A stretch of 64,000 bases of DNA from Rhodothermales bacterium (GTDB lineage: Bacteria > Bacteroidota > Rhodothermia > Rhodothermales > VXPQ01). Position 1 is the stretch's first letter. The number at the start of each line of letters is the position of its first letter. The notes below the pieces were generated by a model. That model was not told the origin of the DNA. It did no database searches and was given only the letters and a program-made list of their open reading frames with translations. Shown piece after piece: positions 7,710-56,075 of this stretch. The stretch covers positions 22,144 to 86,143 of the forward strand of contig JBBDTI010000054.1 in the NCBI GenBank assembly GCA_040904565.1, read 5' to 3'. The translations under genes were made by a program, and so were the position numbers.

Positions 7710-7796
7710 CGTCGTCCTCTGCCGGCTCCGCTGGAGTACCGGCTTTCCAGCGGGCTGGGCGGACGTCGCGGCGGTTCATGAAATCGCTATCATTTA

Positions 7797-7804
7797 GTAT
7801 ACTT
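7797..7804 (+). promoter_or_regulatory. GTATACTT box upstream of Gfo paralog 2
   Basis: catttaGTATACTTgat, ending 75 nt before the homology-supported ATG at 7879. Resembles a degenerate Bacteroidota -7 element (TAnnTTTG), but this is unproven. Confidence 0.35.
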
Positions 7805-7866
7805 GATCGTACCTCGGTGCCCGTCGAGCGAATCCGGGGAAAGCTATACGTACTGCATCAACTCAT

Positions 7867-21805: not shown

Positions 21806-23182
21806 CTACGAGCCGACGTTCGGCAGGGCGGCGAGGCTCTCGTCTACGGCGTCCTGCGAATATTCGTAGTCGGGAAGCTCGCCCGCGCGGTAGGCCTCGT
21901 AAGCGGAGAGGTCGAAGTGGCCGTGCCCGGACAACGCAAAGACGATGGTTTCGGCGGAGCCTTCCTCCTTGCAGCGGAGCGCTTCTTCCATGGCACCCCA
22001 CACGGCGTGGCCAGCTTCGGGGGCTGGGAGGATGCCTTCGCTGTGAGCGAAGCTCGTGCAGGAGGCAAACATCGGGTTTTGCAGGACGCTCCGGGCCTCG
22101 ATGCGCCCGGCCTCGAGCAGCGCGCTCACCTGCGGACTCATGCCGTGATATCGGAGCCCTCCCGCGTGGATGGGCGCCGGGACAAAATCGTGTCCGAGCG
22201 TATGCATCTTCATCAGCGGCGTCATCCGACCCGTATCGCCGAAGTCGTAGGCGAAGCGTCCTTTCGTAAGGCTGGGTGAGGCGGCGGGTTCGACGGCGAT
22301 GATGCGCGTGGTGCGGCCGTTCGAGGCCGTTTCTCCCAGGAACGGAAAGGCGAATCCACCGAAGTTGCTGCCCCCGCCCGTGCAGCCGACGATCACGTCC
22401 GGCCATCCCGCACCGGCCAGTTCGAGCTGTGCCAGTACTTCCTGTCCGATGACGGTCTGGTGTAGGAGCACGTGGTTGAGCACGCTGCCGAGCGAGTATT
22501 TCGTGTCGTCGCGCGTCGCCGCCTCTTCCACGGCCTCACTGATCGCGATGCCGAGGCTGCCCGTGCTGTCGGGGTTTTTTGCCAGGATGTCGCGTCCCGC
22601 CTGGGTTTTATTACTGGGGCTGGGCGTAACCGAGGCGTCGAAGGTTTCCATGAGCACGCGCCGGTAAGGCTTCTGCTCGTAGCTCACCTTCACCATGTAG
22701 ACGTGGCATTCGATGCCGAACACCTTGCAGGCAAAACTGAGGGCGCTTCCCCATTGTCCGGCCCCCGTCTCGGTCGCGATGCGCCTGGTGCCCTCCTTCG
22801 CGTTGTAGTAAGCCTGAGCGACGGAGGTGTTGGGCTTGTGACTGCCCGAGGGGCTGACGCCTTCGTACTTGTAATAGATCTTGGCGGGCGTGCCGAGTGC
22901 TTCCTCCCACCGGCGGGCGCGCACGAGCGGCGTGGGCCGCCACAGCCGATAGATCTCCCGGATCTCTTCGGGAATCTCTATCCATCGCTCGGTGCTGACC
23001 TCCTGCTGAATGAGGGCCATGGGAAAGAGCGGCGCGAGATCGTCCGGTCCGACCGGCTCTCCCGTGCCGGGGTGAAGTACGGGTGACATTTCGGCATCCA
23101 GGCCGGCCATGTCGGCCGCGATATTGTACCAGTGCGTCGGTGCCTTGTCTTCCGGTAAAAAAATTCTCGTCGGGACGGGCAT
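21806..23182 (-). CDS. TrpB-like PLP-dependent enzyme (tryptophan synthase beta chain, TrpB2 type)
   Basis: ATG at 23182. PLP-lysine motif [31 protein letters not shown] phosphate loop. About 457 aa, typical of the long TrpB2 class. Confidence 0.85.
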
Positions 23183-23283: not shown

Positions 23284-25503
23284 TTAGAACCGATGCGTGT
23301 ACGTCAGCTTCGTCGCCGCTTGCTGCCCGAGGGGTCGTATTTCCATCACGTCGTTGATCCAGTTGTGCGTGTAGACGACGTAGAGATCGCTTCCCGGCTG
23401 GATGGTCCAGCGGAACCGCCCGTACAGGCCGATCAGCTCGGAGAGGTTGTCATACTGGACGTTCGACGTCAGGGAGATGCGGGGCGTCAGGTCGAGACTT
23501 CCTGATGCACGGAGCAGCCGGGCGGAAAAGTTGCCCTCCGGCAAGCGCACGTCGTCGAATCTCCAGAAGGCCGACAGATTGAGCCCGGGGAACGGTCGGA
23601 CGGTGGCGACGGCCGAGTATCCCGTCTGCGTTCCCGTCCAGAAGCTGCCGTGGCTGACGGATCCCGAAAGCCTGACGCGGCGGTGAGCGGCGGTACTCGC
23701 CTCGGCCTCGCCCGTCCACGTCAGGTACCCGCCCGAAGGGACGATGATGCCGCCGTCTCGCCGAATGTCGAACGGTCCGAAGAGGCGTTCGAAATTGCGC
23801 GAGACGCTGACGCCGATTTCGTCGCCGGTCTCGAAGCGGATGCCGGGCGTAAAACGCGTTTCTACCGTAGCGGGCTCGAAGTCGAGGTTCGTCAGATACT
23901 CGAAACGCCATTCGAAGAGGAGCTCGCGCACGAGGTCGCTGTTTTCCATGAGGGGCAGGTATTCGAGGGTCGGCTGAAATCGGCGAAAGCCGCGCCGCTG
24001 TACGAAGCCCACGGCGGGGTCGAAGGCTTCGCCGAACTCACGGTACGACGTAGCGAAGGCCCAGGGGTCGTTGGGATAGTCGATTCGAATTCCACGCGAC
24101 GATCGATCCCACAGGTTCGTACGGGCATCCGGCGCCGGATCGTTGTGCCCCACGAAGAAGGCCTGGAACTGGAGGATCTTGTCGCCGCGAAACCGCGACG
24201 TCGCGAGCTCCAGATCGGCACCGAACGTGTGGTGGTCGCCGGGGGTGCCTGATCCATGTGCGGCTCTGCGCGTGTAGATGAGACCGGCCATGCTCTCAGT
24301 GAAGATATTGCGCACGAGCCGGGCCGCGGTGAAATCCTCCGTCGGGAAGTCGCCGGATTCCTGCGTGCGCACCTGTATGAGTCCGATGTCGTAGTCGCCC
24401 ACCTGGCCTGCCAGCCGCCCCCCGAAGAGAAGGGGGATGACCTGCCCTTGCTCGAGTCCGATGCGACGGCTGAAATACGGGTTGACGTTGCTCGACGGAG
24501 CGAACTCGAATACGCTGGATCCCTCCAGGAAGAAATCGCGTTGTTCGGGAAATTGCAGGGGAAAGCGCGTCAGATTGACCTGTCGCTCGTCGACCTCCGT
24601 CTCCGCGAAATCGGTGTTGATCGTGGCCGAGGCGCGGAGATTGGGCGTCATGCTGTAGGTCACGTCGAAGCCGGCGTCGGACCTCGTGCCGGTGTCCGTA
24701 TCCTCGTCCACCCACGTACGCGTTGCCGATCCGAGGGCATAGGGCGCGACTTCAAGACCGAGTCCTTGCGACATCCCCTCAAGTCCGACGAGGTCGCCGG
24801 CGTTCTGCGGACGCCAGAGTCCCTGGTTGCGACGGTGTCCCGTCCACAGCAGCTCTTCATTTTTCCGCCGGATCGTTCGTTGAAAGTTGATGCCCCAGGT
24901 GTCCTGGTCCGGGTTGAAATTGAGCGTACGAAAAGGGATGAGAATCTCGGCGCTCCATCCGTTGGGCCCGCGACGGACGCGCACGTCCCACAAGCCGTCC
25001 CACGACTTATTGATGGTGGTCCCCTGTCCCGTTCGCACGAGCCCGTCGCCTAGGAGTCCAGCCGGATTAATCTCGAAGAAGTATGCCGAACGCCCGTCGT
25101 TGAAGGTGTCGATGATCCACATGAAGCGATCGTCCGTCGCGAGACTCATGTCGCGTCGCTTCTGAAAGGCGAGAATACCGTCGGGCTCGCTGTCGTAGAG
25201 CATCGCGCCGATGTACAGGTAGTTCTGGTCGTACATGATGCGGACTTCCGTTCGCTCGGTGGGCTCGCCGCCCTCCCGGGGTTCCTGCATCAGGAAACGC
25301 GTGATGGGCTCGGCATCCTCCCAGAACGGTTCGTCGAGCCGTCCGTCAAAGTGGAGCGTGGCGCCGGAGGGCAGGGGCTCGGCACGAACGGACGGAGGAG
25401 CATCGTCGGCGGTGATTTGCCTTCCGTAGACGGACACGGTGCCGGTCGGTCCGATGAGCAGGCAGCTTGCGATCAGAACGAACAGTCTCTGCGTCGGGTG
25501 CAT
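23284..25503 (-). CDS. CBM9-like + DUF5916 domain protein (predicted outer-membrane beta-barrel), copy 1
   Basis: ATG at 25503 with a signal peptide. N-terminal FDGRLDEPFWEDAEPITRFLMQEPREGGEPTERTEVRIMYDQNYLYIGAMLYD (CBM9-like). Long alternating beta-strand region ending in ...KLTYTHRF (aromatic terminus). Confidence 0.75.
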   Translation of the reverse strand: MHPTQRLFVLIASCLLIGPTGTVSVYGRQITADDAPPSVRAEPLPSGATLHFDGRLDEPFWEDAEPITRFLMQEPREGGEPTERTEVRIMYDQNYLYIGAMLYDSEPDGILAFQKRRDMSLATDDRFMWIIDTFNDGRSAYFFEINPAGLLGDGLVRTGQGTTINKSWDGLWDVRVRRGPNGWSAEILIPFRTLNFNPDQDTWGINFQRTIRRKNEELLWTGHRRNQGLWRPQNAGDLVGLEGMSQGLGLEVAPYALGSATRTWVDEDTDTGTRSDAGFDVTYSMTPNLRASATINTDFAETEVDERQVNLTRFPLQFPEQRDFFLEGSSVFEFAPSSNVNPYFSRRIGLEQGQVIPLLFGGRLAGQVGDYDIGLIQVRTQESGDFPTEDFTAARLVRNIFTESMAGLIYTRRAAHGSGTPGDHHTFGADLELATSRFRGDKILQFQAFFVGHNDPAPDARTNLWDRSSRGIRIDYPNDPWAFATSYREFGEAFDPAVGFVQRRGFRRFQPTLEYLPLMENSDLVRELLFEWRFEYLTNLDFEPATVETRFTPGIRFETGDEIGVSVSRNFERLFGPFDIRRDGGIIVPSGGYLTWTGEAEASTAAHRRVRLSGSVSHGSFWTGTQTGYSAVATVRPFPGLNLSAFWRFDDVRLPEGNFSARLLRASGSLDLTPRISLTSNVQYDNLSELIGLYGRFRWTIQPGSDLYVVYTHNWINDVMEIRPLGQQAATKLTYTHRF

Positions 25504-25682
25504 CTATGCTTCTATACTGGCGGGTGATAAAGCGCGTACGGACGGAAAGGCCGCTGTCGCGACGCTTCCAGATTGTGTATAGTAGTATAAGGTCATTTGG
25601 TGGCCGCACGTCCACATGCCGGCAATGACCATAGACGGGCATTCACGGATGGCTGGGGTCTCCAATAGACAGGTAAAGGCAT

Positions 25683-26516
25683 ATGATCAAACGCATCGCA
25701 CGGTTCTGTCTCACCATCGTTTTCTTACCGGCGGTCGTCCTAGCGCAACCCGAGACGCCTGTAGAGCAGTGGTCGGGGAAGACGATCCTCTTTGTGGGCG
25801 CCCATCCGGATGACGATTCGCGATCTCACGGAACGCTGTCTATGCTCCAGGATCGCGGCAACGACGTTCACGTGTTGCTCATGACGCTCGGCAACGTCGG
25901 GACCAAGGATCCGGATCTGTCCATGATCGAGCTTGCCGAGATCCGTCGTGGAGAAGAGGTCGCCGCGCTGGCCGCACTGGGGATTCCGGAAGAAAATTAC
26001 ATCAACCTGGGTTACGATGACGGTCGGCTCGAATACGCCGATCGTGAGGAAGCCATCGAGCGCATCGTATATCAGATCCGTCGCCTGCAGCCGAACGTGA
26101 TGATGGCGTTCGATCCGGGGCAGCAGGAGCTTCGCTGGCACAAGTCAGATCACCGTTCGGCCTCGTATCTGGCCGCCGACGCGGCGAGGGCGGCCGAGTG
26201 GCCGCTGCTCTATACGGGTCACCTCGTCAATCACGGCCTCGAAGCGCACCAGATCGAAGAATACCTTTTCTACGACACCAACGACGGAAACACGGGGGTA
26301 GACATCACGGGCTACGTCGACCGGAAGGTAGCGGCCGGTACCGAATACGTGAGCCAATGGGGACCGGAAGGCCAGTATAAGTACTACCCCGAGCTGACCG
26401 ACGAGCAGCTGGAGAACGCTCGCGAGCGGATCCGCAATAGGGTGATCCATCGAGACGGACAACCGGTAGAGGTATTTCGACACCATGCCGGCGTGCCTGA
26501 TGCCATCGGCCGGTAA
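25683..26516 (+). CDS. PIG-L (LmbE-like) family deacetylase, secreted
   Basis: ATG at 25683. Signal MIKRIARFCLTIVFLPAVVLAQ. Family motif ILFVGAHPDDDS. Confidence 0.8.
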   Translation: MIKRIARFCLTIVFLPAVVLAQPETPVEQWSGKTILFVGAHPDDDSRSHGTLSMLQDRGNDVHVLLMTLGNVGTKDPDLSMIELAEIRRGEEVAALAALGIPEENYINLGYDDGRLEYADREEAIERIVYQIRRLQPNVMMAFDPGQQELRWHKSDHRSASYLAADAARAAEWPLLYTGHLVNHGLEAHQIEEYLFYDTNDGNTGVDITGYVDRKVAAGTEYVSQWGPEGQYKYYPELTDEQLENARERIRNRVIHRDGQPVEVFRHHAGVPDAIGR

Positions 26517-26527
26517 TCATACGAATG

Positions 26528-27418
26528 CTACTCCATGCCCGCAATCACGCCGCGCATGTAGGCGAACGACCGCTGCATGCCTGGGAGAGGGTCGTCGGGA
26601 TGTATCTCGTATTCGAGGTTGACGCTGCCGGCGTATTGCATATCGACCAGCTGGTGGAAAATGGCCGGCACGGGCAGCTTTCCTTCTCCGACGATGCACT
26701 GGCTGTCGCGATCGGTCAGATCCTGCAGGTCTTTCATGTGCATGTCGAGCACGCGGTCGCCGGCATCGGCGATCTCCTGTACGACGTCGTTGCCCGTTCG
26801 CGCCGTATGGCCGACGTCCACGCACAGTCCGATGCGCGGGTCCATATCGCCGATGAGCCGGAGCGCGTCGCTCGGGGCGGGATAGTGCGGGTCCTCCGGT
26901 CCGTGATTGTGGATGGCCACGCTGATGTCGTACTCCTTGACGAATTGCTCGATACGAGGCAAGGTGTCCGGATGCGGCGCGATGACGAGCATGGGAATGC
27001 CCGATGCACGGGCGTATTCGAAGAACATCCGGACGTGTTCGTCCGTGTCTTCGCTGATGGTGTTGTTGCCGCTGCTCTCGATGGTCAGGCCGGCGTCGTG
27101 AAACTCGGAGACGGCCGATCTGATCTCCGCGTCCGAGAGCTCGTACGGCAGGTGGAACGATTTCACGCTGACGGTCGTCGCGCCGAGGGCGTTCACCATC
27201 GCGATGGCCTCTTCACGGGAGAACTCCCGGAGCGAGTACGTCGCGACGCCGAGCCGCACGCGGTCGTCCAGGGACTCTAAGCCATGCTTGCTCGAGGGCG
27301 ACGTCGTGCGGTCGGTCCAGCCAGGCAGGGCCGACAGAGAGAGTCCGAGCGTTCCAGCGGCTGCGTGTTTGAGAAAACGGCGACGTGGTGCGGCGTGGCG
27401 TCCGGTTTCGGTCTTCAT
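26528..27418 (-). CDS. Sugar phosphate isomerase/epimerase (xylose isomerase-like TIM barrel), Tat-exported
   Basis: ATG at 27418. Twin-arginine signal HAAPRRRFLKHAAAGTLGLSLSAL. AIHNHGPE and DVGH motifs. Confidence 0.8.
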   Translation of the reverse strand: MKTETGRHAAPRRRFLKHAAAGTLGLSLSALPGWTDRTTSPSSKHGLESLDDRVRLGVATYSLREFSREEAIAMVNALGATTVSVKSFHLPYELSDAEIRSAVSEFHDAGLTIESSGNNTISEDTDEHVRMFFEYARASGIPMLVIAPHPDTLPRIEQFVKEYDISVAIHNHGPEDPHYPAPSDALRLIGDMDPRIGLCVDVGHTARTGNDVVQEIADAGDRVLDMHMKDLQDLTDRDSQCIVGEGKLPVPAIFHQLVDMQYAGSVNLEYEIHPDDPLPGMQRSFAYMRGVIAGME

Positions 27419-27586
27419 CGTATCGTGTCGTTCGTGAGGACGCAGATCATCATTCAGTATACCAAGTCATTCCGTGGAAGTATACGAAGGACTGGCGTTC
27501 GTCGCTGAAATGAACGGCTCCATCATTGGTGCGTATTTTAGGACTCCTTTACGTCCGTCAATGCTCAAAAACCCCGTCTTGAACGC

Positions 27587-30115
27587 ATGAGAAGGTTGTG
27601 GAGGGCGCTGCCCTTTGTCCTCATCCTCTTCGTTTTGGCACCGCCCCTCGTCCGCGCACAGTCCGATCAGGTCCCGTCTCGCGAGAGCCGGTCGTCGGTC
27701 ATGACGGCGGGAGTACTGGAGGGAGACGTACAGATCGACGGACGGCTCGACGAACCGAGCTGGTCGGCTGCGGAGCGCATGGACGAATTCGTTCAGTTTG
27801 AGCCGAGGGAAGGAGACCCGCCCACGCAGCCCTCGGAGGTGCGCGTGCTGTACGGTCCGAGCAGTCTCGTCGTCGGGGCGACGCTGTTCGATGAAGATTC
27901 CGAACGCATTCAGCGTACGCTGGGGCGGCGCGACGAGTATATGCAGGCCGACTGGTTCGCGGTGTCTATCGACGCCCATCTGGATCGCCGTACGGCATTC
28001 CTTTTTGCCGTCAATGCCGCCGGCGTCGAGTATGACGCGCAGCAAACGGAGGGAGCCCGTCCGGCTCCCGGACCGGGAGACGGCGGCGATACGTCGTGGG
28101 ATGCCATCTGGGATTCTGCGGTTCGCGTAACGGCCGATGGATGGGTCGTCGAGATGGAGATCCCGTACAGCATGCTCCGCTTCTCGAGGTCGGACGTGCA
28201 GACCTGGGGCATCCGTTTCTCACGCGAGATCCCGCGCCTCGGCGAGGTCTCCGAGTGGCCCCTCGTGCCGCGTACGGAACGGGCCAACCTGATCGCCCAA
28301 TACGGTACGCTGCAGGGCATCCGCGGCATCGAGCCGCGGCGCAACGTGCAGATTACGCCGTACACGCTTTCGCGGCTCGACCGGGTGGAGGATCCGACGG
28401 AGTCGGGCACGGCGCTGCACGAGACGGGGGTGGACGTGGGAGGGGACCTGCGCGTGGGGCTCGGGTCGAACGTGACGCTGAACGCGACGGTAAATCCGGA
28501 CTTCGGCCAGGTGGAGTCCGACCCCGCCGAGCTAAATCTCACGGCGTTCGAAACGTTTTTCGAGGAGCGACGGCCTTTTTTCGTCGAAGGGTCCCAGATC
28601 TATCAGTTTCCCCTCGTAAGTCGCGGCAATTTGCTATACACGCGGCGCATCGGGGCACAGAATCCGATTCTCGGCGCCGCCAAGGTTTCCGGCCGCACGG
28701 GCGACGGACTTTCGTTCGGCGTACTGGGCGCGGCGACAGGTCACGAACTGATCGGCGAATCGAACCGTCACTACGGCGCGGCGAGGCTCAGCCAGCAAAT
28801 CGGACGCTATTCTACCGCAGGGGGAATGGTTACCGGCTTCAACGGACTTGACGGGCGGGTGGTCGCGGGCGGGGCGGACTGGGATCTGCGCTTCGCGGAT
28901 AACACCTATGGGCTGCGGGGTTTCACGGCCTTTACGAGGGGAACGGATCTTGAAACGGGCTTCACGGGACAGGTCGCCGCCGGGCGGCGCCAGGGTACGT
29001 GGACGTACGAGTTCGGCGCCGATTTTATCGACGACCGGTTCGAGCCTAACGACCTCGGCAGGCAGCGCTACAATAACACCTGGGGCGTGGTCGGACGGTT
29101 CGGGCACGACCTGAATGCCGGGCGCGACTTCGGTCCGTTTCAGCGGGCCGAGGCACGTGCGTACACGTTCAACCAGTGGTCCTACGACGAGGGCGTCAAC
29201 CTGGGCGGCCGGTTCGCCGTCAATTCGGAGTGGACGCTGCGCAGCTTCGAGACCGTCTCGGTGGATGCCTCCCTCGACAATCATTTCGGCGGATACGACC
29301 AATTCGAAACGCGCGGCCTGGGATACAACGCGATCCCGATGGCCTTCGAACTCGGGGGAGCGTTTGCGACGGACTCGCGCCGCGAGTGGCGGCTCGAACC
29401 CGAGGCCGGCGTACAGTTCGAGGACGACGGCGGCATGACGTATGCCGGCGGCGTAGATGCCGAGTGGAACGTGCGGTCGCGGCTTGGGCTCGGCGCCGAG
29501 GTTAACGTCGAGTGGGGCGACGGGACGCGAGAGTGGGCCGCCAACGAGGAATTCCGGCGCCAGGATGGCGGCTGGGCCATCCGCGAGTCGGGTGGCGTCG
29601 ATCCGAGGTTCGTTCCGTTCGACGACGGCGGCCGGCTCGATGAGATTCTTGCAGGCGTGCTGACGACGGACGGCACCGACCGGTACCGCGTCCCTGTCTT
29701 CGGCGCTCGCGACACCCGTACGTTCGACCTCACGCTCCGCACGAACTACACGTTCACGCCGGACCTGGCCCTCCAGTTCTACAGCCAGTTTTTCGTCGCG
29801 CGGGCGCGGTATGACGATTTCCGTATTCTTACCGACCCGGATACCTATGCTCGGTTCGACGCCTTCCCCAAACGTTACGAGCTCGCGCGAAGCAGCTTTC
29901 AGTTCAATGCCGTGCTCCGATGGGAGTACCGGCCGGGATCGGAGCTGTTCGCCGTGTGGACGCAGAGCCGCCGTGCCGACGACGCCCTGAACCCGCTCGG
30001 CCCGTGGGATGCTTCGCCTTACGATCGCCCCTATTCCGAGCAGATCTCCGATACGTTCGGCATCTTTCCGGGTAACGTGTTCATGCTCAAGATCAATTAC
30101 GCGTTCCTGTATTGA
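27587..30115 (+). CDS. CBM9-like + DUF5916 domain protein (predicted outer-membrane beta-barrel), copy 2
   Basis: ATG at 27587 with a signal peptide. IDGRLDEPSWSAAERMDEFVQFEPREGDPPTQPSEVRVLYGPSSLVVGATLFD parallels copy 1. C-terminus ...LKINYAFLY. Confidence 0.75.
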   Translation: MRRLWRALPFVLILFVLAPPLVRAQSDQVPSRESRSSVMTAGVLEGDVQIDGRLDEPSWSAAERMDEFVQFEPREGDPPTQPSEVRVLYGPSSLVVGATLFDEDSERIQRTLGRRDEYMQADWFAVSIDAHLDRRTAFLFAVNAAGVEYDAQQTEGARPAPGPGDGGDTSWDAIWDSAVRVTADGWVVEMEIPYSMLRFSRSDVQTWGIRFSREIPRLGEVSEWPLVPRTERANLIAQYGTLQGIRGIEPRRNVQITPYTLSRLDRVEDPTESGTALHETGVDVGGDLRVGLGSNVTLNATVNPDFGQVESDPAELNLTAFETFFEERRPFFVEGSQIYQFPLVSRGNLLYTRRIGAQNPILGAAKVSGRTGDGLSFGVLGAATGHELIGESNRHYGAARLSQQIGRYSTAGGMVTGFNGLDGRVVAGGADWDLRFADNTYGLRGFTAFTRGTDLETGFTGQVAAGRRQGTWTYEFGADFIDDRFEPNDLGRQRYNNTWGVVGRFGHDLNAGRDFGPFQRAEARAYTFNQWSYDEGVNLGGRFAVNSEWTLRSFETVSVDASLDNHFGGYDQFETRGLGYNAIPMAFELGGAFATDSRREWRLEPEAGVQFEDDGGMTYAGGVDAEWNVRSRLGLGAEVNVEWGDGTREWAANEEFRRQDGGWAIRESGGVDPRFVPFDDGGRLDEILAGVLTTDGTDRYRVPVFGARDTRTFDLTLRTNYTFTPDLALQFYSQFFVARARYDDFRILTDPDTYARFDAFPKRYELARSSFQFNAVLRWEYRPGSELFAVWTQSRRADDALNPLGPWDASPYDRPYSEQISDTFGIFPGNVFMLKINYAFLY

Positions 30116-30151
30116 GGTGAACTACAAGGTTCCAATCTCATTCCAACGACC

Positions 30152-30682
30152 ATGCAGATAAGACAGCTACTCGCAGCCATGATGATTCCCGTATTCATGA
30201 TGACATCCAACGCAGCCGGACAGGACGTCGAGGCACGGCTCGCCGAGCTCGGGATCGAACTCACCGCGCCCACGGCGCCCGTCGCCAACTACGTAAACGC
30301 CGTCCGTACCGGCAATCTGCTGTTCCTTTCCGGCAAGGGACCTACCCATCCCGACGGCAGTCAGATTCAGGGCAAGCTCGGCAGCGACCTGACCGTCGAA
30401 GAAGGCTATGAGGCCGCGCGCCTTACCGGCATCAATCTACTGGCGGTGCTCAAAGACGAGCTCGGTGACCTGAATCGCGTCAACCGGATCGTCAAGGTGA
30501 TGGGTATGGTCAATTCGGCGCCCGATTTCACGCAGCAGCCGGCCGTCGTCAACGGCTGCTCCGATCTGATGGTGGAGGTCTTCGGCGAGAAGGGACGCCA
30601 CGCAAGGGCCGCCGTCGGGATGGGGGCGCTTCCGGGAAATATCGCCGTGGAGGTGGACCTGGTCGTGGAGGTGGCGGACTAG
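30152..30682 (+). CDS. RidA/YjgF family protein with N-terminal signal peptide
   Basis: ATG at 30152. Signal MQIRQLLAAMMIPVFMMTSNAAGQ. RidA core YVNAVRTGNLLFLSGKGP...ARAAVGMGALPGNIAVEVD. Confidence 0.8.
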   Translation: MQIRQLLAAMMIPVFMMTSNAAGQDVEARLAELGIELTAPTAPVANYVNAVRTGNLLFLSGKGPTHPDGSQIQGKLGSDLTVEEGYEAARLTGINLLAVLKDELGDLNRVNRIVKVMGMVNSAPDFTQQPAVVNGCSDLMVEVFGEKGRHARAAVGMGALPGNIAVEVDLVVEVAD

Positions 30683-30926: not shown

Positions 30927-32144
30927 CTACGCCGACGTGGCCGCGGCGTCCACATCCTCCCGAAAAAAGAAACCGAAGAGCGCCGTCACGAACGCGGCAA
31001 AGCCGAGCGGCATCAGCCAGAAGAGCTGCCATTCCTGGAGCGCCTCGCCGGTTACGACGCGGTTGAAGACGCCCCCGGCGATGAGTGTACCCATGCCCTG
31101 TCCGATTCCGTACGTGACCAGCACGAACAGGCCCTGCGCCTGGGCGCGAATGGTTGGATCCGCCTTCTTGTCGATATAGATCTGTCCGGCGATGTAGACG
31201 AAGCCGTAGCAGATGCCGTGCAGCGCGATCCCGATGAGGATGAACAGGGTCGGTGCTCCCATCGCGCCGGTCAGGAACAGACCGTACCGCACGACCCAGG
31301 CCGTCATGCCGATGAGGAGGACGCGCTTGACGCCGAACTTCGTGAAGAACCACGGCATCAGGAGCAGGAAGACGATCTCGGACATCTGTCCGAACGTCAT
31401 CTTGAAGGCGGGATCCGCGATGTCCGCAGCGTTCAAGAACACGGGCACGTAGGCGTAGTATGTGGCCAGGGGAATGCTCGTCAGCACCAGGCTGACGATG
31501 AAGATCGCGAACGATTTCGACCCGAGCTGCTTCAGCGCATCGATGCCGATGATTTCCCGAAACGTCGTGCGCCGGCTTGCCGCGGGTGGCGGGACGTTGG
31601 GCAGCGTGAAGCAGTAGCCGGCCATGAGGATGCCGCCCACACCGGCGATCTGCATGGGGAGGGCGGTCTCGTCGGCGTGCAGGACGTAACTCACGAGCAC
31701 GCCCGCGCCGATCCACCCGATACTCCCGAACGCGCGGATCAGCGGAAACTGCTGTTCGCGATCCTCCAGGTTATGAAACGCCGTGGCCATGGCGAGTCCG
31801 ACCGTGGGCATGTAGCACACCATATGCAGCAGCAGCAGTACCAGGAAAAGCGGTGTGGAGACGAAGTCGCCCTCCGCGACGAACGGGGCGGAGAAGACGA
31901 ACGTACCGCTCAACAGGTGCATCACGCCCATCACCTTCTGGACCGGGAAATAGCGATCGGCGATCATGCCCAGAAAGAAGGGGGAGACGAGCGATCCGAT
32001 CGGGCTGGCCATATACGCCCAGTAAATGGCGTCGGTCATGCCCACGGCGGACATATAGTTGCCGGCCGTGGCATACCAGGCGCCCCAGACGAAGAACTGG
32101 AGGAACATCATGAGGCGCAGGCGCGCCGTCAGCCATCCGCTCAT
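30927..32144 (-). CDS. MFS transporter, nucleoside:H+ symporter (NupG/XapB-like) family
   Basis: ATG at 32144. N-terminus LRLMMFLQFFVWGAWYATAGNYM matches the NupG-family signature. 12 hydrophobic segments. Confidence 0.8.
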   Translation of the reverse strand: MSGWLTARLRLMMFLQFFVWGAWYATAGNYMSAVGMTDAIYWAYMASPIGSLVSPFFLGMIADRYFPVQKVMGVMHLLSGTFVFSAPFVAEGDFVSTPLFLVLLLLHMVCYMPTVGLAMATAFHNLEDREQQFPLIRAFGSIGWIGAGVLVSYVLHADETALPMQIAGVGGILMAGYCFTLPNVPPPAASRRTTFREIIGIDALKQLGSKSFAIFIVSLVLTSIPLATYYAYVPVFLNAADIADPAFKMTFGQMSEIVFLLLMPWFFTKFGVKRVLLIGMTAWVVRYGLFLTGAMGAPTLFILIGIALHGICYGFVYIAGQIYIDKKADPTIRAQAQGLFVLVTYGIGQGMGTLIAGGVFNRVVTGEALQEWQLFWLMPLGFAAFVTALFGFFFREDVDAAATSA

Positions 32145-32193: not shown

Positions 32194-33147
32194 TCATGCG
32201 TGCACGTCCGCCGTACGCTGCACCGTCTCTTTGATGTACGCGAGCGAAAGACGCGTCGCCTCTTCGATGCCGTCCATGCCTGCGAGCTGATGACTGCGAA
32301 GGCAGGGAAGGCAGTATTCGGCGACGAGATAGCCGTCGTAGCCGAACTCCCAGAGCGCTTCGATGAAGGCTTCGTAGTTCACGCGCACCGCGATGTTCGG
32401 GGCGACATCCTGCACGGGCTCCCCGTCCTCGTCCGCGCTGAAATTCCACGAGCCGAAATGGGTCAGGAGGATGTCGTCGCCGCACGCTTCGACGGCCTCT
32501 CGCATGTAGTCGTTGGACTGCCGCCCGTCGAACAGGGGGGCGTCGATGCAGAGGCGGACGTTGTCCCGGTCGATCTCGTTCATCATCGCCAGGGCGTCCT
32601 CGTAGCCTGGACGCAGGACGGGCGCATGGTTCTGCAGGGCGAGCGTGATGCCCAGATCCTCCGCCCACTCCGACACCTCGCGGATGCCCTCGATGGCCCG
32701 GTGCCAGCGCCGAAGATCCGGCCCGTACTGCTGTTTGTAGTAGTCGCCGCGTTCGTACGGCGCGTAGAAGGACGTGTCTTCCTCGTCGTTCACGATGCCC
32801 GGCCAGGCGGCAAAAATCTTTACGAGATCCACGTCGAGGTCGTGGGCGAGGTCGAGCACCTCGCCCATCATGGCCAGATTGTTTTCGCGGTCTTCCATCG
32901 TGCGCCCCGCGAAGTTGGACATGCTCTCGATGGCACACAGCTCGATGCCTTCGCCGTCGGCGGCGGCCCTGATGTTGTCCCGGTCCGATGCCGAAAGATC
33001 GATCGGCGAGGCGACGGGCCGCTTGGTTTCGATCGCGAGTCCGTCGAAGCCCAGCTCGCGGGCTTTTCGGATCTGTCGTTCGAGAGAGAGCGGCTCACCG
33101 TCGTACCAGAGTCCCGAGTACGATACCGAGAGGAGGCCGAATTTCAT
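32194..33147 (-). CDS. Sugar phosphate isomerase/epimerase (xylose isomerase-like TIM barrel), cytoplasmic
   Basis: ATG at 33147 (MKFGLLSVSYSGLW...). LALQNHAP motif. No signal peptide. The ORF is open to 33267, but that extension is unsupported. Confidence 0.75.
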   Translation of the reverse strand: MKFGLLSVSYSGLWYDGEPLSLERQIRKARELGFDGLAIETKRPVASPIDLSASDRDNIRAAADGEGIELCAIESMSNFAGRTMEDRENNLAMMGEVLDLAHDLDVDLVKIFAAWPGIVNDEEDTSFYAPYERGDYYKQQYGPDLRRWHRAIEGIREVSEWAEDLGITLALQNHAPVLRPGYEDALAMMNEIDRDNVRLCIDAPLFDGRQSNDYMREAVEACGDDILLTHFGSWNFSADEDGEPVQDVAPNIAVRVNYEAFIEALWEFGYDGYLVAEYCLPCLRSHQLAGMDGIEEATRLSLAYIKETVQRTADVHA

Positions 33148-33370
33148 GTCCTGTACCTGGAGTTCCAGAAGTCGGTTCAAACGAGGGTGGCCGCATGCCC
33201 CATCAGTATCCAGAATGCGGGCGTAAATCACAACCTGAGGGCGCGCCCCTCTGACGGCGGCCGGCAAGAAGGATGGGCGCGCGCGCCTGGTTCAGCGAAT
33301 GTCCGTCCGCTCGCCCATCTCGACGACGTGATATCGATTCTGCAGCGCCTGCGACAGCATCGTCTTCACC

Positions 33371-33985
33371 TCAAATGGGTATCCCTTCGCCCAGAAGCGG
33401 TTGGCCTCGTCGTACGCCATCGTGCCGCGATGTGCCGTCGAGCGTGATGAGATAGCCGCAGTCCAGGAGATTCGCTTCGATGTAAACGGCAGACAGTTGA
33501 TCGCCGTGGATGGCGCGTATCGCGTCGACCTGAACCCGACGCACGCTGAACGACGTACGCGGCTCGGCGATCACGAGGCGTTCCGTCGGGATGCCGAGCT
33601 CTTCGGCGATGTCAACCGTGCTGGCCGGGATGACGAAGATGCAGTCGGAATGCTCGAGCAGAATGCGCACCGTCCGCCTCCCGAAATGGTCGCCGTGTCC
33701 GTGTGTGATAAAGGCGACGTCCAGCTCGGGCGCCAGCTCCATCGCTGAAATCGGTGAAGGCTCCAGCCTACCCGGATATTCGAGAACGAGGTCGGTGCCT
33801 ACGAGCAGATCTCCCGACTTGATCAACCAGCCGTTGTGTCCGGTCCACCACACGGCGGCATCACCCTCGTGGGTGCGGATCTCGTCAATGAGGCGCGGCG
33901 CATCCTGGGCGCGGAGCGATGCCGGAATCAGGAGCGCGACGGCCAGCAGTCCGACCGTTGCGAGCCGCCGCGTCATTCGCTCCAC
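33371..33985 (-). CDS. MBL-fold metallo-hydrolase, secreted
   Basis: HxHxDH motif FITHGHGDHFG. Signal-like MTRRLATVGLLAVALLIPASLRAQ. GTG at 33985 or ATG at 33976; overlaps the upstream gene end. Confidence 0.8.
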   Translation of the reverse strand: MERMTRRLATVGLLAVALLIPASLRAQDAPRLIDEIRTHEGDAAVWWTGHNGWLIKSGDLLVGTDLVLEYPGRLEPSPISAMELAPELDVAFITHGHGDHFGRRTVRILLEHSDCIFVIPASTVDIAEELGIPTERLVIAEPRTSFSVRRVQVDAIRAIHGDQLSAVYIEANLLDCGYLITLDGTSRHDGVRRGQPLLGEGIPI

Positions 33986-35925: not shown

Positions 35926-38499
35926 CTACTCACCGCCCTCTTCACCTTCTTCCGCCTCGACGGCCTGATTGATGCCCTCGAGAATGACGGCCTGCTTTTC
36001 GGCGTTCTCCACGCTGCCGAGGTAGGTGGACAGCGTGGCGAGCGCGTCTTCCGTTCCGATCGCAGCGATGCGGCTGACGGTGAAGGAGAGGATGCGTGGG
36101 AGCTGGGCGGCGAGAGCCACGTCCATCGCCCTGTTCAGGTCGGTCGGGACGACCGGTTCCATGGCATACCAGGTCATGAGGGGAAGATTGCGATCGCCCG
36201 CATCTTCCGCCCGCCGGGTAAGCCCCTCGAGCACGTCCCATCTATTTTCCGGTTCCGTTCGCTGCAGTGCGCTGGCGAGGTAGAGACGCACGAGCGACGA
36301 GGGATCGTCCACCGCCATCTGCTCGAAGCGGGCCAGGGCGGACTGCGGCACGTCCCGGTCTTCGGCGAGCAGCTGAATGGCCCAGCTGCGGAGATGCTCG
36401 CTCTCGTGATCGAGCAGTTCGACGAGATCCTGATCCTCGAGTCCGTCCGTCACGTGCAGCGTCCAGAGCGCGCGCAGCTTGCGCGTGACGTCCGGGTTGT
36501 CGTTCAGCATGGCCCACAGCGCATCGTGCACCCCGGCGTCCGCTCCGCGCTCCTGCAGGAGGAGCCGCGAGCGCCGTACGTACCATTCGTTCTGATGCAG
36601 CTGCAGCTCGGCGAGCTCCGCCGACGAGCGTTCCGCCAGATTCACGTCCACCCATTCGTCATTTTCATGCGTGATTTTAAAGATCCTCCCCGTCGAGTGG
36701 TCGTGGCTCTCCGGGTTGCCGTGGTGGCACTGGTTGACGTCGTACCAGTCGATCGTGTAGACCGAGCCATCCGGACCGTACTGCAGGTCGAGCATCTGCG
36801 AGTAGCTGTCGTTGGCCAGCAGGAAGTCGGGGCCGTGGCGGCCGACGTATCCCGATCCGTCGCGCTCCAGGATGTCCGTGTTGGCCCGGAAGCCGTGCAC
36901 GTTGTTCATGAAAAGCCGGCCGTGAAATTCGTCGGGCCAGGAGTCACCGAAATAGAACATCGCTCCGGCATGGGCGTGTCCGCCGCCGGCCGCGCCGGAG
37001 CGGCGATTGCCCGCGTGCGGTCCGCGGTTTCCCACCCAGTGGACGTGGTCGCCGGTGTGATCGAGGTCGTCGTATACGTAGGGATTAAAGTGTTCCCCGG
37101 CCTGACGCATGATACGCGCTCCCTGGATCGCATGATGTAGATGAGGGATGACGCAGGCGGTCATGAAGCCGTGCCCGTATTCGTTCCAGTCGATGCCCCA
37201 GGGGTTGCTCGTACCGTAGGTGAACACCTCGAACTCGTGGCTGGTGGGGTGGAAGCGCCAGGTTCCGGCATTGAGCTTTACGCGCTCCTCTTCCGGCGTG
37301 CCCGGGGCGCCCACATTGGAATGGGTAAAGACGCCGTGCGTGCCGTAGAGCCATCCGTCCGGTCCCCATGAGAAGGAATTCAACGTTTCGTGCGTGTCGT
37401 GATACCCCCATCCGTCGAGGAGGATTTCCGGCTCACCCGCCGGCCGGTCGCCCGATGCGTCGATCGGAATGTACATGAGGTAGGGGGCGGCACCGACCCA
37501 GACGCCTCCCAGGCCAACCTCGAGGCCGCTTATGAGGTTAAGCCCTTCCGTGAACACCTTTCGGCTGTCCAGCGAACCGTCGCCGTCGGTATCTTCGAAG
37601 ATGAGGATGCGGTCGCGGCCTTCGCCTTCTTCCGCGCGCACGGGGTAGGTATGGGCTTCGGCGATCCAGACGCGGCCTCGCTCATCCAGCGCCATCGCGA
37701 TGGGATTGATCACGTCCGGCTCGGCGGCCGCGAGCTGGGCGCTAAATCCGTCGGGAAGATCCATGGCCGCGGCGGCCTGTTCGCCGGTTAGTCCGGCGTG
37801 GACGACCTCATCCCACGCCGGGAGTGCAGAGACCTCCGAAGACTGAATTTCGTTCGGGAAGGACGGCCGTTCCGCGTGGAAGCGGAAGTGATCGAAGCTG
37901 ATGTGGGCGAATGGGTTTTCTCGGATGTACATGGCCGTGGAAGCACCCGCATCCGCGTCGACGAGGCGGATGAAGATCCGGTCGCCGACGTGATCGCTCA
38001 GATCGGCCACGACGGGGCGAAGTTCAAACGAGTTCGTGCCGCTCATCGAAAAAACGACTTCAGCGCCGTCCGTCAGAACGAGTTCCGCCCGGGTACTTTC
38101 GAATGCCCCGCCGGCGAGCAGGAAGCTCGCATACGGTTCCGTGACCTCGAACGCTACCGACGTAAGCTCGCCCTGTCCGCTCGGGCCGTGCGCGAGGACG
38201 GAACTCACCCAGTAGTCGCCCTCGTGACCGCTCCGTGCGTCCTCTTCGCGCTCCGCGACGATCTCGGCCTCACGCGAGGCGTACACGTCGCCCTGAACGG
38301 GCTGGCCTTCGAAGGCATCGCCGTCGGCCGTCCAGTCGGCCAGCGTGCCGGCCTCGAAATCGAGGTTGAGTGTGCGTCCGGCGTCATCCGTAGGGGCTAC
38401 ACCTGCATCCTGGGCCGCGGCGGGGGCGGCCGCGAGCAGGATGCAGGTCAGAACGAAAAGAAATACCTGCGGGAGAGACGTGTGCGTTGACATGATCAT
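35926..38499 (-). CDS. Large periplasmic 'membrane-bound dehydrogenase domain' (SGL-like beta-propeller) + HEAT-repeat protein, paralog B (no redox cofactor module seen)
   Basis: ATG at 38499 with a signal peptide. N-terminal LNLDFEAGTLADWTADGDAFEGQPV domain. Core RILIFEDTDGDGSLDSRKVF...GWGYHDTHETLNSF. C-terminal helical HEAT-like repeats. No CxxCH motif. Confidence 0.8.
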   Translation of the reverse strand: MIMSTHTSLPQVFLFVLTCILLAAAPAAAQDAGVAPTDDAGRTLNLDFEAGTLADWTADGDAFEGQPVQGDVYASREAEIVAEREEDARSGHEGDYWVSSVLAHGPSGQGELTSVAFEVTEPYASFLLAGGAFESTRAELVLTDGAEVVFSMSGTNSFELRPVVADLSDHVGDRIFIRLVDADAGASTAMYIRENPFAHISFDHFRFHAERPSFPNEIQSSEVSALPAWDEVVHAGLTGEQAAAAMDLPDGFSAQLAAAEPDVINPIAMALDERGRVWIAEAHTYPVRAEEGEGRDRILIFEDTDGDGSLDSRKVFTEGLNLISGLEVGLGGVWVGAAPYLMYIPIDASGDRPAGEPEILLDGWGYHDTHETLNSFSWGPDGWLYGTHGVFTHSNVGAPGTPEEERVKLNAGTWRFHPTSHEFEVFTYGTSNPWGIDWNEYGHGFMTACVIPHLHHAIQGARIMRQAGEHFNPYVYDDLDHTGDHVHWVGNRGPHAGNRRSGAAGGGHAHAGAMFYFGDSWPDEFHGRLFMNNVHGFRANTDILERDGSGYVGRHGPDFLLANDSYSQMLDLQYGPDGSVYTIDWYDVNQCHHGNPESHDHSTGRIFKITHENDEWVDVNLAERSSAELAELQLHQNEWYVRRSRLLLQERGADAGVHDALWAMLNDNPDVTRKLRALWTLHVTDGLEDQDLVELLDHESEHLRSWAIQLLAEDRDVPQSALARFEQMAVDDPSSLVRLYLASALQRTEPENRWDVLEGLTRRAEDAGDRNLPLMTWYAMEPVVPTDLNRAMDVALAAQLPRILSFTVSRIAAIGTEDALATLSTYLGSVENAEKQAVILEGINQAVEAEEGEEGGE

Positions 38500-38505
38500 T
38501 GCGAT

Positions 38506-39753
38506 TTAGTTTGCGTCTGAGAGCAATTGGGGTTGGGCATCCTCCCATTCCGAAGCGCTTACCATGCGCGTCTGGTGGTGGAAAACGAACGCCCCCTTCT
38601 TATTGACGACCAGGATGTCGGGCAGCCCGTCGTCATTGAAATGGCCGATCGTTACGTCGACGCCGACGCCGGAGTCGTCGTCGATCAGGTAGGGGATGAA
38701 GGACACGTCGCCGTCTTCAGAGCGGTCCAGCTTGAACCAGTAGAGGACGGCCGGCGCCTGTGATTCGGGGTCGCCGTGATCGCCGTGCGCGTACCAGCGC
38801 TTTCCGGTCACGATATCCAGGAGTCCGTCTCCGTCGATGTCGGCGACTTTCAGGGCGTGCGGCTGCGTGAATCGCACGCCATATGGACTGTCCTCGATCT
38901 CTTCACCCATGATGAGGTGTCGTTCGAACGTACCGTCCGGCAGCTGTTCGAACCAGGCCAGGCCGTATCCATGGGCCTCCAGGCTCGTGATGACGTCGTT
39001 CCGTCCATCTCCGTTCACGTCGTAGGCGTGCATGTGGGCACCGCCGGGTCCGAAGTCGACCTCGTGGTAGGTCCATAGGTCGTCCGAATCGAAGCCGGGA
39101 TTCTCCCACCAGCCTTCGGCCAGGATCAGATCCGGCAGTCCGTCCCCGTCGACGTCGCCCGTGCCGAGGCCGTGCGTATAGCGGCCCCACTCGTGCTGCT
39201 CCGTCACGGGATGGAACGTCCATTCGTCGGTTGGACGATCGGGGTCGAAGGTCGTGTACCCCATGTATCCGTCGGCCAGGTGGACGATCTCGGGCCGCCC
39301 GTCACCCGTGAAATCCTCGATATGCACCGATTCGTCATCGATCGTAGGATAGGCCAGATGCCGCTCCCAGTGCCCGCCGTCATCCTGCGGATTCTCGTAC
39401 CAGTACGCTGCCTCTCCGGGAAATCCGATCACGAGGATGTCGTTACGTCCGTCGCCGTTGAAATCGTAGACGTGCGCGAAAAACTTGTCGGAGTACTCCA
39501 GCACATCGAAGACGGTCGGTTCGATGAATTCGTGCCGCTCCTGGAAGTCGGGCCCCGCGTACCAGAACGGGCCGACCACCACATCCGGCGTGCCGTCGCC
39601 GTCGACGTCGCCGATGGCCCCGCCTTCCGCATAGAAGACGTCGGAGAGCTGGGTGCGCTCGAATTCGTGCACGGTCCGGTCTTCCGGACCGAACAGCAGA
39701 TACCCCGAGGCGACGAGGATGATGGCTGCGGCGGCTACGTAGATCTTTTTCAT
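38506..39753 (-). CDS. FG-GAP/VCBS repeat protein, secreted
   Basis: ATG at 39753. Repeated Ca-binding-like DxDGDG motifs: GDVDGDGTPDVVVG, FNGDGRNDILV, TGDGRPEIV, GDVDGDGLPDLIL, VNGDGRNDVI, DIDGDGLLDIV. Confidence 0.85.
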   Translation of the reverse strand: MKKIYVAAAAIILVASGYLLFGPEDRTVHEFERTQLSDVFYAEGGAIGDVDGDGTPDVVVGPFWYAGPDFQERHEFIEPTVFDVLEYSDKFFAHVYDFNGDGRNDILVIGFPGEAAYWYENPQDDGGHWERHLAYPTIDDESVHIEDFTGDGRPEIVHLADGYMGYTTFDPDRPTDEWTFHPVTEQHEWGRYTHGLGTGDVDGDGLPDLILAEGWWENPGFDSDDLWTYHEVDFGPGGAHMHAYDVNGDGRNDVITSLEAHGYGLAWFEQLPDGTFERHLIMGEEIEDSPYGVRFTQPHALKVADIDGDGLLDIVTGKRWYAHGDHGDPESQAPAVLYWFKLDRSEDGDVSFIPYLIDDDSGVGVDVTIGHFNDDGLPDILVVNKKGAFVFHHQTRMVSASEWEDAQPQLLSDAN

Positions 39754-39757
39754 GGCT

Positions 39758-42598: not shown

Positions 42599-42977
42599 CG
42601 GCGGGCAGTAGAGAAGGATATATAACTTGGAAAGCGAACAGGACCTGGAAGCCGGGTGGACGAGGAACACCGTCCCGCATCTAGGCCGCAGCAGCCGACC
42701 CACAATATACACGCGATGTGTCGACTTATGAAGGGTGGAGTCAAATGGAGCGCTCGTGCTCGAGCCAGGGCCTGTCTCGGCGCGGATGCGGAGCGGCTCT
42801 TGCCGTCCGGCTGGTGCCGCGCCGCATCCGTACCAACCGTTCTGCTGGTGCCGCATCGCATTGGCACGAACCGTTTGGTTATCTTATCGCGGCCGGCACG
42901 TCCAAAGAAAAGGCTGTGGACAGGGGCGGGGTAGTTCCGGCAAATGAAAGATTGCCCGAACAACTAGTCCGAGGTGC

Positions 42978-55322: not shown

Positions 55323-56075
55323 ATGAAATCAATCTATACTGCATGGCTACTTGCAGCCGCGCTGCTTCTTGGAACCGCCGTCGAGACCGCATCGGCGCAG
55401 GCCCCGGAGGGCTTCGAGTCCATTTTCAACGGGAGAAATTTCGACGGATGGCAGGTGCCTGAGGGCGACAACGGGCACTGGCGCGTCGTGAATGGCGCGA
55501 TCGACTATGACGCTGAGAGTGAGGCCGAAGGAGATAAGAGCCTCTACACGGAAGACGAGTACGGGGATTACGTGCTGCTGATCGACTGGCGGATTAAGAC
55601 CGTTGCGCCCTATACGAATCCGCGCGTCCCCATCATTCTGGGTGACGGGACGCACAAGAAGGATCAGGATGGAAACGATATGGTGATCTCCGTCCCGGAC
55701 TCCGACTCCGGCATCATTCCGCGTGGGCACGGAAAGGCCCAGCACAATATCTGGAACTGGCCGTACGGGTCGGGTGAGGTATATGGTTATCGGATGGATG
55801 ACAACCAGCCGCCGGCGGTGCGCAGCGCGGCCGTGCCGCTCACCAACGCCGACAACGACATCCGGGAATGGAATACGTCCGAGATCACCGTCCAGGGTCA
55901 ATTCATGACGATCAGGATCAACGGTGAGCTGGTGATCGATCGCATTCACCTCAACGAGATTCCGGAAAGCGGACCCATCGGTTTGCAGCATCACGGTTCG
56001 AAGCGGGACGGTGAATGGGTCAGTCCGCCCTCCCTCGTTCAGTTCCGCAACATCTACGTCAAGGATCTCGAATAG
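55323..56075 (+). CDS. DUF1080 (3-keto-disaccharide hydrolase-like) domain protein, secreted
   Basis: ATG at 55323 with a signal peptide. Family-typical FESIFNGRNFDGWQVPEGDNGHWRVVNGAIDYD, GPIGLQHHG, FRNIYVKDL. Confidence 0.85.
   Translation: MKSIYTAWLLAAALLLGTAVETASAQAPEGFESIFNGRNFDGWQVPEGDNGHWRVVNGAIDYDAESEAEGDKSLYTEDEYGDYVLLIDWRIKTVAPYTNPRVPIILGDGTHKKDQDGNDMVISVPDSDSGIIPRGHGKAQHNIWNWPYGSGEVYGYRMDDNQPPAVRSAAVPLTNADNDIREWNTSEITVQGQFMTIRINGELVIDRIHLNEIPESGPIGLQHHGSKRDGEWVSPPSLVQFRNIYVKDLE

Follow-up and report, generated by a model that had tools for sequence, protein, structure and literature searches.

Predicted outer-membrane barrels of the DUF5916 family in a lineage-specific gene neighbourhood of a Rhodothermales bacterium

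Large outer-membrane proteins that join a beta-barrel to an N-terminal globular domain are known from several systems. In LptD (Protein Data Bank (PDB) 4q35, 5iv9) an N-terminal beta-sandwich, the OstA jellyroll, precedes a barrel of ~26 strands, and in TonB-dependent transporters, including the SusC proteins of polysaccharide utilization loci (PULs), a large barrel lies behind an N-terminal globular domain of ~150-200 aa. Beta-sandwich modules of the CBM9 type, such as CBM9-2 of T. maritima Xyn10A (1i82) and the Caldicellulosiruptor CBM9 (7nwn), are instead fused to glycoside hydrolases. Here we analyze 64,000 nucleotides from a Rhodothermales bacterium (GenBank assembly GCA_040904565.1, contig JBBDTI010000054.1, positions 22,144 to 86,143), hereafter the window, in which two proteins of the Pfam family DUF5916, designated DUF5916_A and DUF5916_B (or A and B), are encoded alongside a PIG-L/LmbE-family deacetylase, a xylose-isomerase-like TIM barrel with a twin-arginine translocation (Tat) signal, and a Rid/YjgF-family protein. 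An earlier interpretation, made from the sequence alone (the sequence-only reading), had proposed that these five genes form a functional module, independent of SusC and SusD, in which the DUF5916 barrels admit an amino-sugar glycan that is processed in the periplasm. Our comparisons lead us to regard a different account as fairly probable: that independent transcription units have come to lie side by side within one lineage, and that the DUF5916 barrels act as autonomous, TonB-independent gates.

Both large proteins are new members of an already catalogued family, each scoring above the gathering cut-off of DUF5916 (PF19313; scores in Table 1). Full-length homologues bearing PF19313 number in the thousands (7,775 scored matches for B and 7,876 for A) and fall into two length classes, an A-type of ~735 aa and a B-type of ~855 aa. 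As proposed from the sequence, A and B are otherwise only distantly similar: they align at 33% identity over ~418 N-terminal residues (E = 1e-53), and profile-profile comparison with hhalign gives a probability of 100% over 464 columns. Judged from these alignments, they are clear but distant paralogues. An N-terminal module common to both (DGRLDEP.W ... EPREG ... EVR[IV][ML]Y) is real, as the sequence-only reading had noted, although its literal pattern matches neither protein, the spacings being a few residues off. The exact sequence of DUF5916_B has no entry in the assembly index, and its closest homologue on record is only 71% identical.

Features expected of exported outer-membrane proteins are apparent in A and B. 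A basic and then hydrophobic stretch opens each of the five products, the export signals being judged by this heuristic rather than by a trained signal-peptide predictor, and in DUF5916_B the signal peptide ends in ...VRA, before QS. The C-termini are aromatic in the manner of outer-membrane barrels, a resemblance suggested earlier that is conserved in alignments of both types (64 A-type and 62 B-type sequences): DUF5916_A ends in ...TYTHRF, with the terminal F present in 59/64, and DUF5916_B in ...INYAFLY, with F at -3 in 58/62 and Y at -5 in 60/62. AlphaFold2 produced confident models of A (pLDDT 86.2, pTM 0.84) and B (pLDDT 80.6, pTM 0.77). Both are all-beta, with about 24-28 long strands, and share one layout, in which a signal helix is followed by a beta-sandwich, by three long strands with an excursion of ~55 residues after them, and by ~20 further long strands that continue to the C-terminus. 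Foldseek comparison with the PDB returned outer-membrane barrels of large size (E = 1e-9 to 1e-5). Their TM-scores are only 0.2-0.35, so that neither protein has a close solved barrel relative, and the B alignment, run as a profile against PDB sequences, had no matches at E <= 10. Signal, all-beta model, matches to solved barrels and C-terminal aromatics thus agree, and support the prediction that A and B are outer-membrane barrels carrying an N-terminal CBM9-like beta-sandwich. The possibility that DUF5916 would model as a soluble fold, which would have told against the earlier proposal, is not what the models suggest.

The sandwich, which spans residues ~38-240 in the model of A and ~38-246 in that of B, is matched by Foldseek to CBM9 modules in both cases, 7nwn, 7nwo and 4jpq at TMt 0.74-0.77 for A and 1i82 at TMt 0.72 for B, with 14-19% identity between the N-terminal ~200 aa and the CBM9 structures in superposition. 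A CBM9-like fold is indicated by structure and not by sequence: CBM9_1 (PF06452) scores 16.3 bits in A, below its cut-off of 23.4, and gives no match in B. DUF5916 further differs from the described CBM9 modules in joining its domain to a predicted membrane barrel. A reading of this domain as a heme-binding DOMON was rejected, because no invariant His, Met or Cys is common to the A and B types.

Among solved barrels, A is matched best by chains of LptD (E = 2e-9 to 1e-7), which share the order of sandwich and ~26-strand barrel, while the matches of B comprise MtrB, TonB-dependent receptors, SprA, SlpA and AlgE. The place of LptD at the head of the list for A, and of AlgE and SlpA among the matches of B, would suit an outward-acting role, in which DUF5916 proteins are LptD- or AlgE-like exporters, or surface anchors for glycolipid or polysaccharide, with the CBM9-like domain holding cargo in the periplasm; the lack of recurring catabolic partners (see below) fits such a housekeeping envelope role too. 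We nonetheless consider this very unlikely. The TM-scores to LptD are ~0.3, a likeness generic to large barrels, and there is no sequence relationship and no Pfam LptD/OstA signal in A or B, so that neither can be assigned to LptD, whose jellyroll is in any case distinct from the CBM9/DOMON-like domain of DUF5916. No LptE-like partner recurs nearby, no polysaccharide-synthesis genes recur beside DUF5916 in a 72-locus census, and the occurrence of several paralogues per genome is more readily reconciled with channels that differ in substrate than with one essential exporter.

TonB-dependent transporters offer the other obvious comparison, since they supply many of the Foldseek matches (E = 1e-6 to 1e-5) and a glycan context is plausible. 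Neither A nor B, however, shows a Pfam or NCBIfam match to Plug (PF07715) or TonB_dep_Rec (PF00593) at E <= 0.01, no SusD recurs beside DUF5916 in that census, and the conserved segment of the family lies after strand 3, unlike an N-terminal plug. Both proteins accordingly fall outside the TonB-dependent transporters and SusC. A candidate TonB box in the stretch SSVMTAGV was also rejected, since these residues form the first sandwich strand and no Plug match accompanies them.

The size and pattern of conservation of the family are of note in themselves. A HMMER search over 1.84 billion cluster representatives (50% identity) recovered 27,499 sequences at E <= 1e-3 and 5,485 at E <= 1e-30. Record titles assign members of the family to Balneolaceae, Rhodothermales, other Bacteroidota, Gemmatimonadota, Poribacteria, Latescibacterota, Zixibacteria, Ignavibacteriota, Calditrichaceae and Acidobacteriota. 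DUF5916 (PF19313) is unmentioned in the literature searched, and a search combining DOMON, CBM9 and outer membrane likewise returned no relevant paper. Across 48 members at ~30% identity, 23 columns are invariant: 11 in the sandwich (including, in the CBM9-like domain, W59, W175 and W186), 2 in strands 1-3, 9 within residues 303-357 of B (D305, D312, L318, E327, R329, E334, R353, R354 and G356), and a single one in the 485 residues that remain. The family's most conserved stretch, TxNPDFGQVExDPAxLNLTAFETFFxERRPFFxEG...YTRRIG, corresponds to residues 303-357 of B and 296-350 of A. Functional conservation thus lies in the sandwich and in this charged segment of 55 residues, and not in the barrel wall. 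The same segment, which follows strand 3, is the worst region of both AlphaFold2 models (pLDDT 30-46); our guesses are that it forms an in-folded constriction loop, or a latch whose order depends on a ligand or partner.

The five open reading frames (ORFs) between 23284 and 30682 were confirmed by ORF lists and profile scans, and their coordinates, strands and N-terminal signals bear out the arrangement of five exported products first described. Whether that arrangement reflects a shared function was judged from 165 DUF5916 loci retrieved with B, 80 from GTDB species genomes, 80 from JGI metagenomes and 5 reached through close homologues of B. By tblastn, homologues of the PIG-L, TIM and Rid proteins lie beside B in only three of these (L082, L083 and L093), in all of which B is 67-68% identical to that of the window. 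One of them, L083, has the order and orientation of the window (PIG-L(+), TIM(-), B(+), Rid(+)), while L082 keeps TIM, B and Rid, and L093 keeps TIM beside B, so that Rid adjoins B in L082 and L083 only. At 64% identity (L081) B is flanked by genes for a GFO_IDH_MocA protein and a hypothetical protein, at 59% (L084) by an M14 peptidase gene and a second DUF5916, and at 52% (L085) by DUF7133 and DoxX genes; neither in these nor in the remaining loci fetched with B were PIG-L, TIM or Rid found beside it. In a Pfam census of the genes immediately adjoining DUF5916 at 72 of the initial 85 loci, 70 families were counted upstream and 81 downstream, none of them at more than 3 loci. The earlier proposal had named conservation of the neighbours in relatives as its own test, and across the loci compared they are not conserved; the same neighbours do not recur in divergent relatives, and a functional module of five genes is not supported.

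DUF5916_A does not accompany the supposed block in relatives. In L082 (18-4076) and L083 (1-1920) a TamB gene stands upstream of the block, where the window has DUF5916_A, the contig of L093 being too short to show the corresponding gene. Orthologues of A elsewhere have unrelated neighbours: YCII/glyoxalase and ThuA-GSDH genes at 74% identity, a gene for an FG-GAP type IX secretion substrate at 63%, and amidase and SGL genes at 61%. A thus lies outside the block both in the close relatives and in the A-type loci.

A restricted form of the first proposal, confined to a narrow clade, deserves separate consideration. In this form B, and perhaps A, would admit an amino-sugar glycan for the exported enzymes, the PIG-L protein would de-N-acetylate it, the Tat TIM barrel would process it further, and the exported Rid protein would quench imine products. 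The gene order of L083, with the partial blocks of L082 and L093, is what this would predict, as are the export signals on all five products, the close spacing of the B and Rid genes, and the intact catalytic motifs of the PIG-L protein. We consider it distinctly unlikely all the same. Common descent alone explains synteny among loci whose proteins are 67-87% identical, and the downstream genes for a nucleoside symporter and a second TIM barrel, unrelated to the block, are equally well kept in the close relatives, as is TamB; the retention of the block is therefore what simple descent predicts. The pair formed by the symporter gene and the second AP_endonuc_2 gene is present also in L081, where B has other flanks, and in L082. 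The block has dissolved by 64% identity, A lies outside it in relatives, deeper PIG-L orthologues belong to SusC/SusD loci, the orientation of the genes calls for several promoters, and TIM paralogues are so common that adjacency to one means little.

The association of A with B raises a different possibility, that A-type and B-type proteins form a working pair, as a hetero-oligomer or as sequential gates, to which the enzymes are incidental. Of the 165 loci, 14 have a further DUF5916 copy no more than 10 kb away, and in 9 the copies are direct neighbours; adjacent paralogues include those of L035 (7037-12742), L108 (2496-7246), L084 (3676-8828), L010, L068, L123, L125 and L134. In L108 an A-type ORF overlaps the next B-type ORF by 4 nt, in L035 A and B are separated by 21 nt, and L084 holds a convergent A-like/B pair. 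Pairs in the order A then B occur in Gemmatimonadota and soil metagenomes, and each of the four ORFs that match the A profile in loci fetched with B adjoins a B-type gene. DUF5916 paralogues thus seem to cluster more than we would expect, which speaks for such pairing and lends partial support to the sequence-only reading. On the opposite side, ~90% of loci are single-copy and the pairs are mostly tandem duplicates of B-type genes, no B lies less than 10 kb from the orthologues of A that are 61-74% identical, and in metagenome sample 3300037760 the orthologues of A and B lie on different contigs. On balance, we think it distinctly unlikely that the A/B pair is the functional unit.

The PIG-L protein carries the metal-binding and catalytic motifs AHPDDD and HKSDH, which place it in the PIG-L/LmbE family, and against the BshB1, BshB2, MshB and Mca equivalogs it scores 34-65 bits, short of cut-offs of 182-277. 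Its Sec signal ends in ...VLA, before QPE, and its exported orthologues form a tight group with the same signal and the same mature N-terminus (QPE.PVE.W.GKTIL). In Rhodocaloribacter litoris (74% full-length identity; L090, CP076718.1, 3343-13347) and Rhodothermus marinus (59%; L091, CP001807.1, 3038-15007) the gene directly follows SusC-SusD, and in both loci it is succeeded by genes for a PcRGLX-like enzyme and a CitMHS-type transporter; the R. marinus locus also holds a Glucosamine_iso gene, a major facilitator superfamily (MFS) permease and an extracytoplasmic function (ECF) sigma/FecR pair. A literature search turned up no paper on the PIG-L locus of Rhodothermus. This setting fits a role in the use of amino-sugar glycans and runs counter to the proposed independence from SusC and SusD, whereas the partners of the PUL version (SusC-SusD, the PcRGLX-like enzyme and the transporter) are all missing from the window. 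In the scanned ORFs of the window (43 of 45, those at 3-608, 201 aa, and 56015-56746, 243 aa, being too short for SusC or SusD) there is no TonB_dep_Rec or SusD_RagB match, and the window does not contain a PUL in this sense. A PIG-L sequence 99% identical to that of the window (P0241) occurs on a 2-kb Logan contig, and the same or a nearly identical organism is therefore represented in a public sequencing run.

With 18.7 bits, the TIM barrel (twin-arginine motif RRRFLK) scores above the cut-off of 16.7 for the Tat-signal model TIGR01409, and its gene is one of four AP_endonuc_2 genes in the window (at 9685, 17070, 26528 and 32194). The protein belongs by annotation to the 'sugar phosphate isomerase/epimerase' family, the TIM-barrel family that includes the 3-keto-glycoside lyases, which are annotated 'sugar phosphate isomerase' and act with Gfo/Idh/MocA oxidoreductases and DUF1080 proteins in a periplasmic pathway (10.1101/2024.03.25.586180). 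The TIM barrel of the window is likewise exported and is likened to this pathway by annotation; the GFO_IDH_MocA and DUF1080 genes of the window, however, are scattered over 50 kb and not clustered with it. In all, the window also holds 2 GFO_IDH_MocA genes, 2 DUF7133 genes, 1 gene of the 3keto-disac_hyd (DUF1080) family, and genes for a sulfatase, a polysaccharide deacetylase and a GDSL esterase. Because paralogues of exported sugar enzymes are so dense, the presence of one beside any outer-membrane gene in the window is expected by chance.

Several genes of this background have features of their own. The GFO_IDH_MocA genes are in tandem (6183-9399; 508 and 510 aa), each with a TATACT hexamer 69-84 nt upstream, and the Pfam domain of their products starts only at about residue 135, which implies long N-terminal extensions or mis-set start codons. 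The two DUF7133/HEAT-repeat paralogues (857 and 1,032 aa; 60% identical; 35926-42856) flank an FG-GAP repeat gene (38506-39753), and the larger has in addition a weak match to a plastocyanin-like copper-binding domain. The gene at 59579-64000, truncated where the window ends, encodes more than 1,470 aa, in which CotH, three lamin-tail domains and chitobiase C-terminal domains are combined with Por_Secre_tail; its product is a type IX secretion substrate and so assigns the organism to the Fibrobacterota-Chlorobiota-Bacteroidota group. An ORF at 32200-33447(+) (415 aa), which lacks a Pfam match, was dismissed as an antisense artefact of the minus-strand AP_endonuc_2 gene at 32194-33267.

The Rid protein resembles RidA/YjgF imine deaminases in its matches to PF14588 and PF01042, both above cut-off, and the Arg in ...GRHARAAVG... 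lies at what we take to be the expected position of the RidA catalytic Arg. It scores 39 bits against the archetypal RidA model TIGR00004 (cut-off 106) and carries a signal peptide, whereas known RidA substrates arise in the cytoplasm. Downstream of DUF5916_A, at a distance of 101 nt and in the same orientation, a gene at 21806-23182 encodes a pyridoxal phosphate (PLP)-dependent enzyme of the PALP family without a signal peptide. PALP-family dehydratases are classical sources of RidA substrates; this enzyme appears cytoplasmic, whereas the Rid protein appears exported.

Transcriptional organization, as far as it can be read from gene orientation and motifs, is that of several units. The PIG-L and TIM genes converge with a gap of 11 nt, and the divergent and convergent orientations together require at least three promoters. 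DUF5916_B and Rid lie on the same strand, separated by 36 nt, and are probably co-transcribed, since a promoter/terminator scan found no terminator-like site in this gap; sites found by the sigma-70 promoter and terminator scan are no more numerous than in shuffled sequence. The motif AGTATAC, described earlier as occurring twice, 23 nt apart, in the divergent region 27419-27586, is present as described, and AGTATAC occurs 5 times in the window where 1.3 copies are expected (0/100 shuffles reach 5). Read on the minus strand, both copies of the pair are GTATACT, and the start codon of the TIM gene follows them at distances of 38 and 61 nt. The core TATACT is intergenic in 8 of its 11 copies, in a window with 8.3% intergenic DNA, and 7 of these 8 aim at a start codon 38-174 nt away (6099, 7798, 18495, 25513, 25584, 27456 and 27479), the genes behind them including both GFO genes, ORF 18669, the PIG-L gene (copy at 25513 (+), 170 nt before) and DUF5916_A (AGTATA at 25584, a minus-strand TATACT, 81 nt before). 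TATACT is thus a candidate -10-like promoter element in this organism, and the simplest reading of the AGTATAC pair is that it represents -10-like promoter hexamers of the TIM gene. A shared operator was rejected as an explanation of AGTATAC, given the intergenic enrichment of TATACT and its correct orientation upstream of several unrelated genes.

Table 1. Positions of the genes and sequence elements discussed, in window coordinates
Feature	Position	Strand	Properties
DUF5916_A	23284-25503	-	739 aa; Pfam DUF5916 60.2 bits (cut-off 22.6)
Divergent spacer DUF5916_A / PIG-L	25504-25682	.	carries TATACT-type hexamers
PIG-L/LmbE-family deacetylase, exported	25683-26516	+	277 aa; PIG-L (PF02585) 90.3 bits (cut-off 28.2)
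Tat xylose-isomerase-like TIM barrel	26528-27418	-	296 aa; AP_endonuc_2 62.6 bits
AGTATAC pair	27456-27485	-	copies 27456-27462 and 27479-27485
DUF5916_B	27587-30115	+	842 aa; Pfam DUF5916 197 bits (cut-off 22.6)
Rid/YjgF-family protein, exported	30152-30682	+	176 aa; YjgF_endoribonc (PF14588) 86.6 bits (cut-off 35)
Nucleoside:H+ symporter-family MFS permease	30927-32144	-	outside the proposed module; syntenic in close relatives (78-87% identical)
Second AP_endonuc_2 TIM barrel	32194-33267	-	upstream of the symporter gene

The account we favor may be set out as follows. The region would comprise at least four separate transcription units, namely A, perhaps together with the PLP-enzyme gene behind it, then PIG-L, then TIM, and lastly B and Rid as one unit, brought together in a Rhodothermales/Balneolales-like host genome that appears unusually dense in exported sugar-scavenging enzymes. 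A and B would derive from two old paralogous subgroups of DUF5916, each with a signal peptide, a predicted outer-membrane barrel of ~24-26 strands and an N-terminal CBM9-like sandwich, and each would serve by itself as a TonB-independent, ligand-specific outer-membrane gate or channel, in which the lectin-like domain and the conserved segment may provide a binding or constriction site. The PIG-L protein would be the orthologue of a periplasmic deacetylase normally encoded downstream of SusC/SusD, the Tat TIM barrel one of many paralogues in a family that includes 3-keto-glycoside lyases, and the AGTATAC pair a set of -10-like hexamers that would serve the TIM gene.

Certain observations weigh against this account. 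The five products are all exported and their genes tightly packed; the block of PIG-L, TIM, B and Rid is kept in a few close relatives (L083, and partly L082 and L093), and a contig of 4,780 bp that appears to hold P0001 and P0243 probably bears it as well, so there may be a clade-specific functional link among the block genes. The paralogues A and B may not be fully autonomous, given the second copies in 14 of 165 loci and the A-profile ORFs beside B. A channel function for DUF5916 is suggested by modelled fold and conservation only, and the neighbouring ORFs were called by a crude longest-ORF rule.

A more ambitious view would combine several of these elements, and would hold DUF5916 to be an unrecognized major class of outer-membrane machine in the Fibrobacterota-Chlorobiota-Bacteroidota (FCB) group, Gemmatimonadota, Acidobacteriota and Poribacteria: TonB-independent and lectin-gated, with a site formed by the sandwich together with D305, D312, E327, R329, E334, R353 and R354, working at times as A/B pairs, and with one member recruited, at the level of a clade, beside PIG-L, TIM and Rid for amino-sugar scavenging. 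Taken jointly, these propositions seem to us unlikely, if worth stating.

As a five-gene module the region has little significance, because its arrangement is local to one narrow lineage, and the window cautions against the assignment of function from adjacency where paralogous exported sugar enzymes abound. Its interest rests on DUF5916, a huge family whose members combine a modelled barrel of LptD size with a lectin-like domain, a charged conserved segment and no partner that recurs among the immediate neighbours at 72 loci. If DUF5916 proteins are indeed glycan channels, they would represent an outer-membrane route in environmental Bacteroidota-like phyla that has been missed by PUL-centred annotation.

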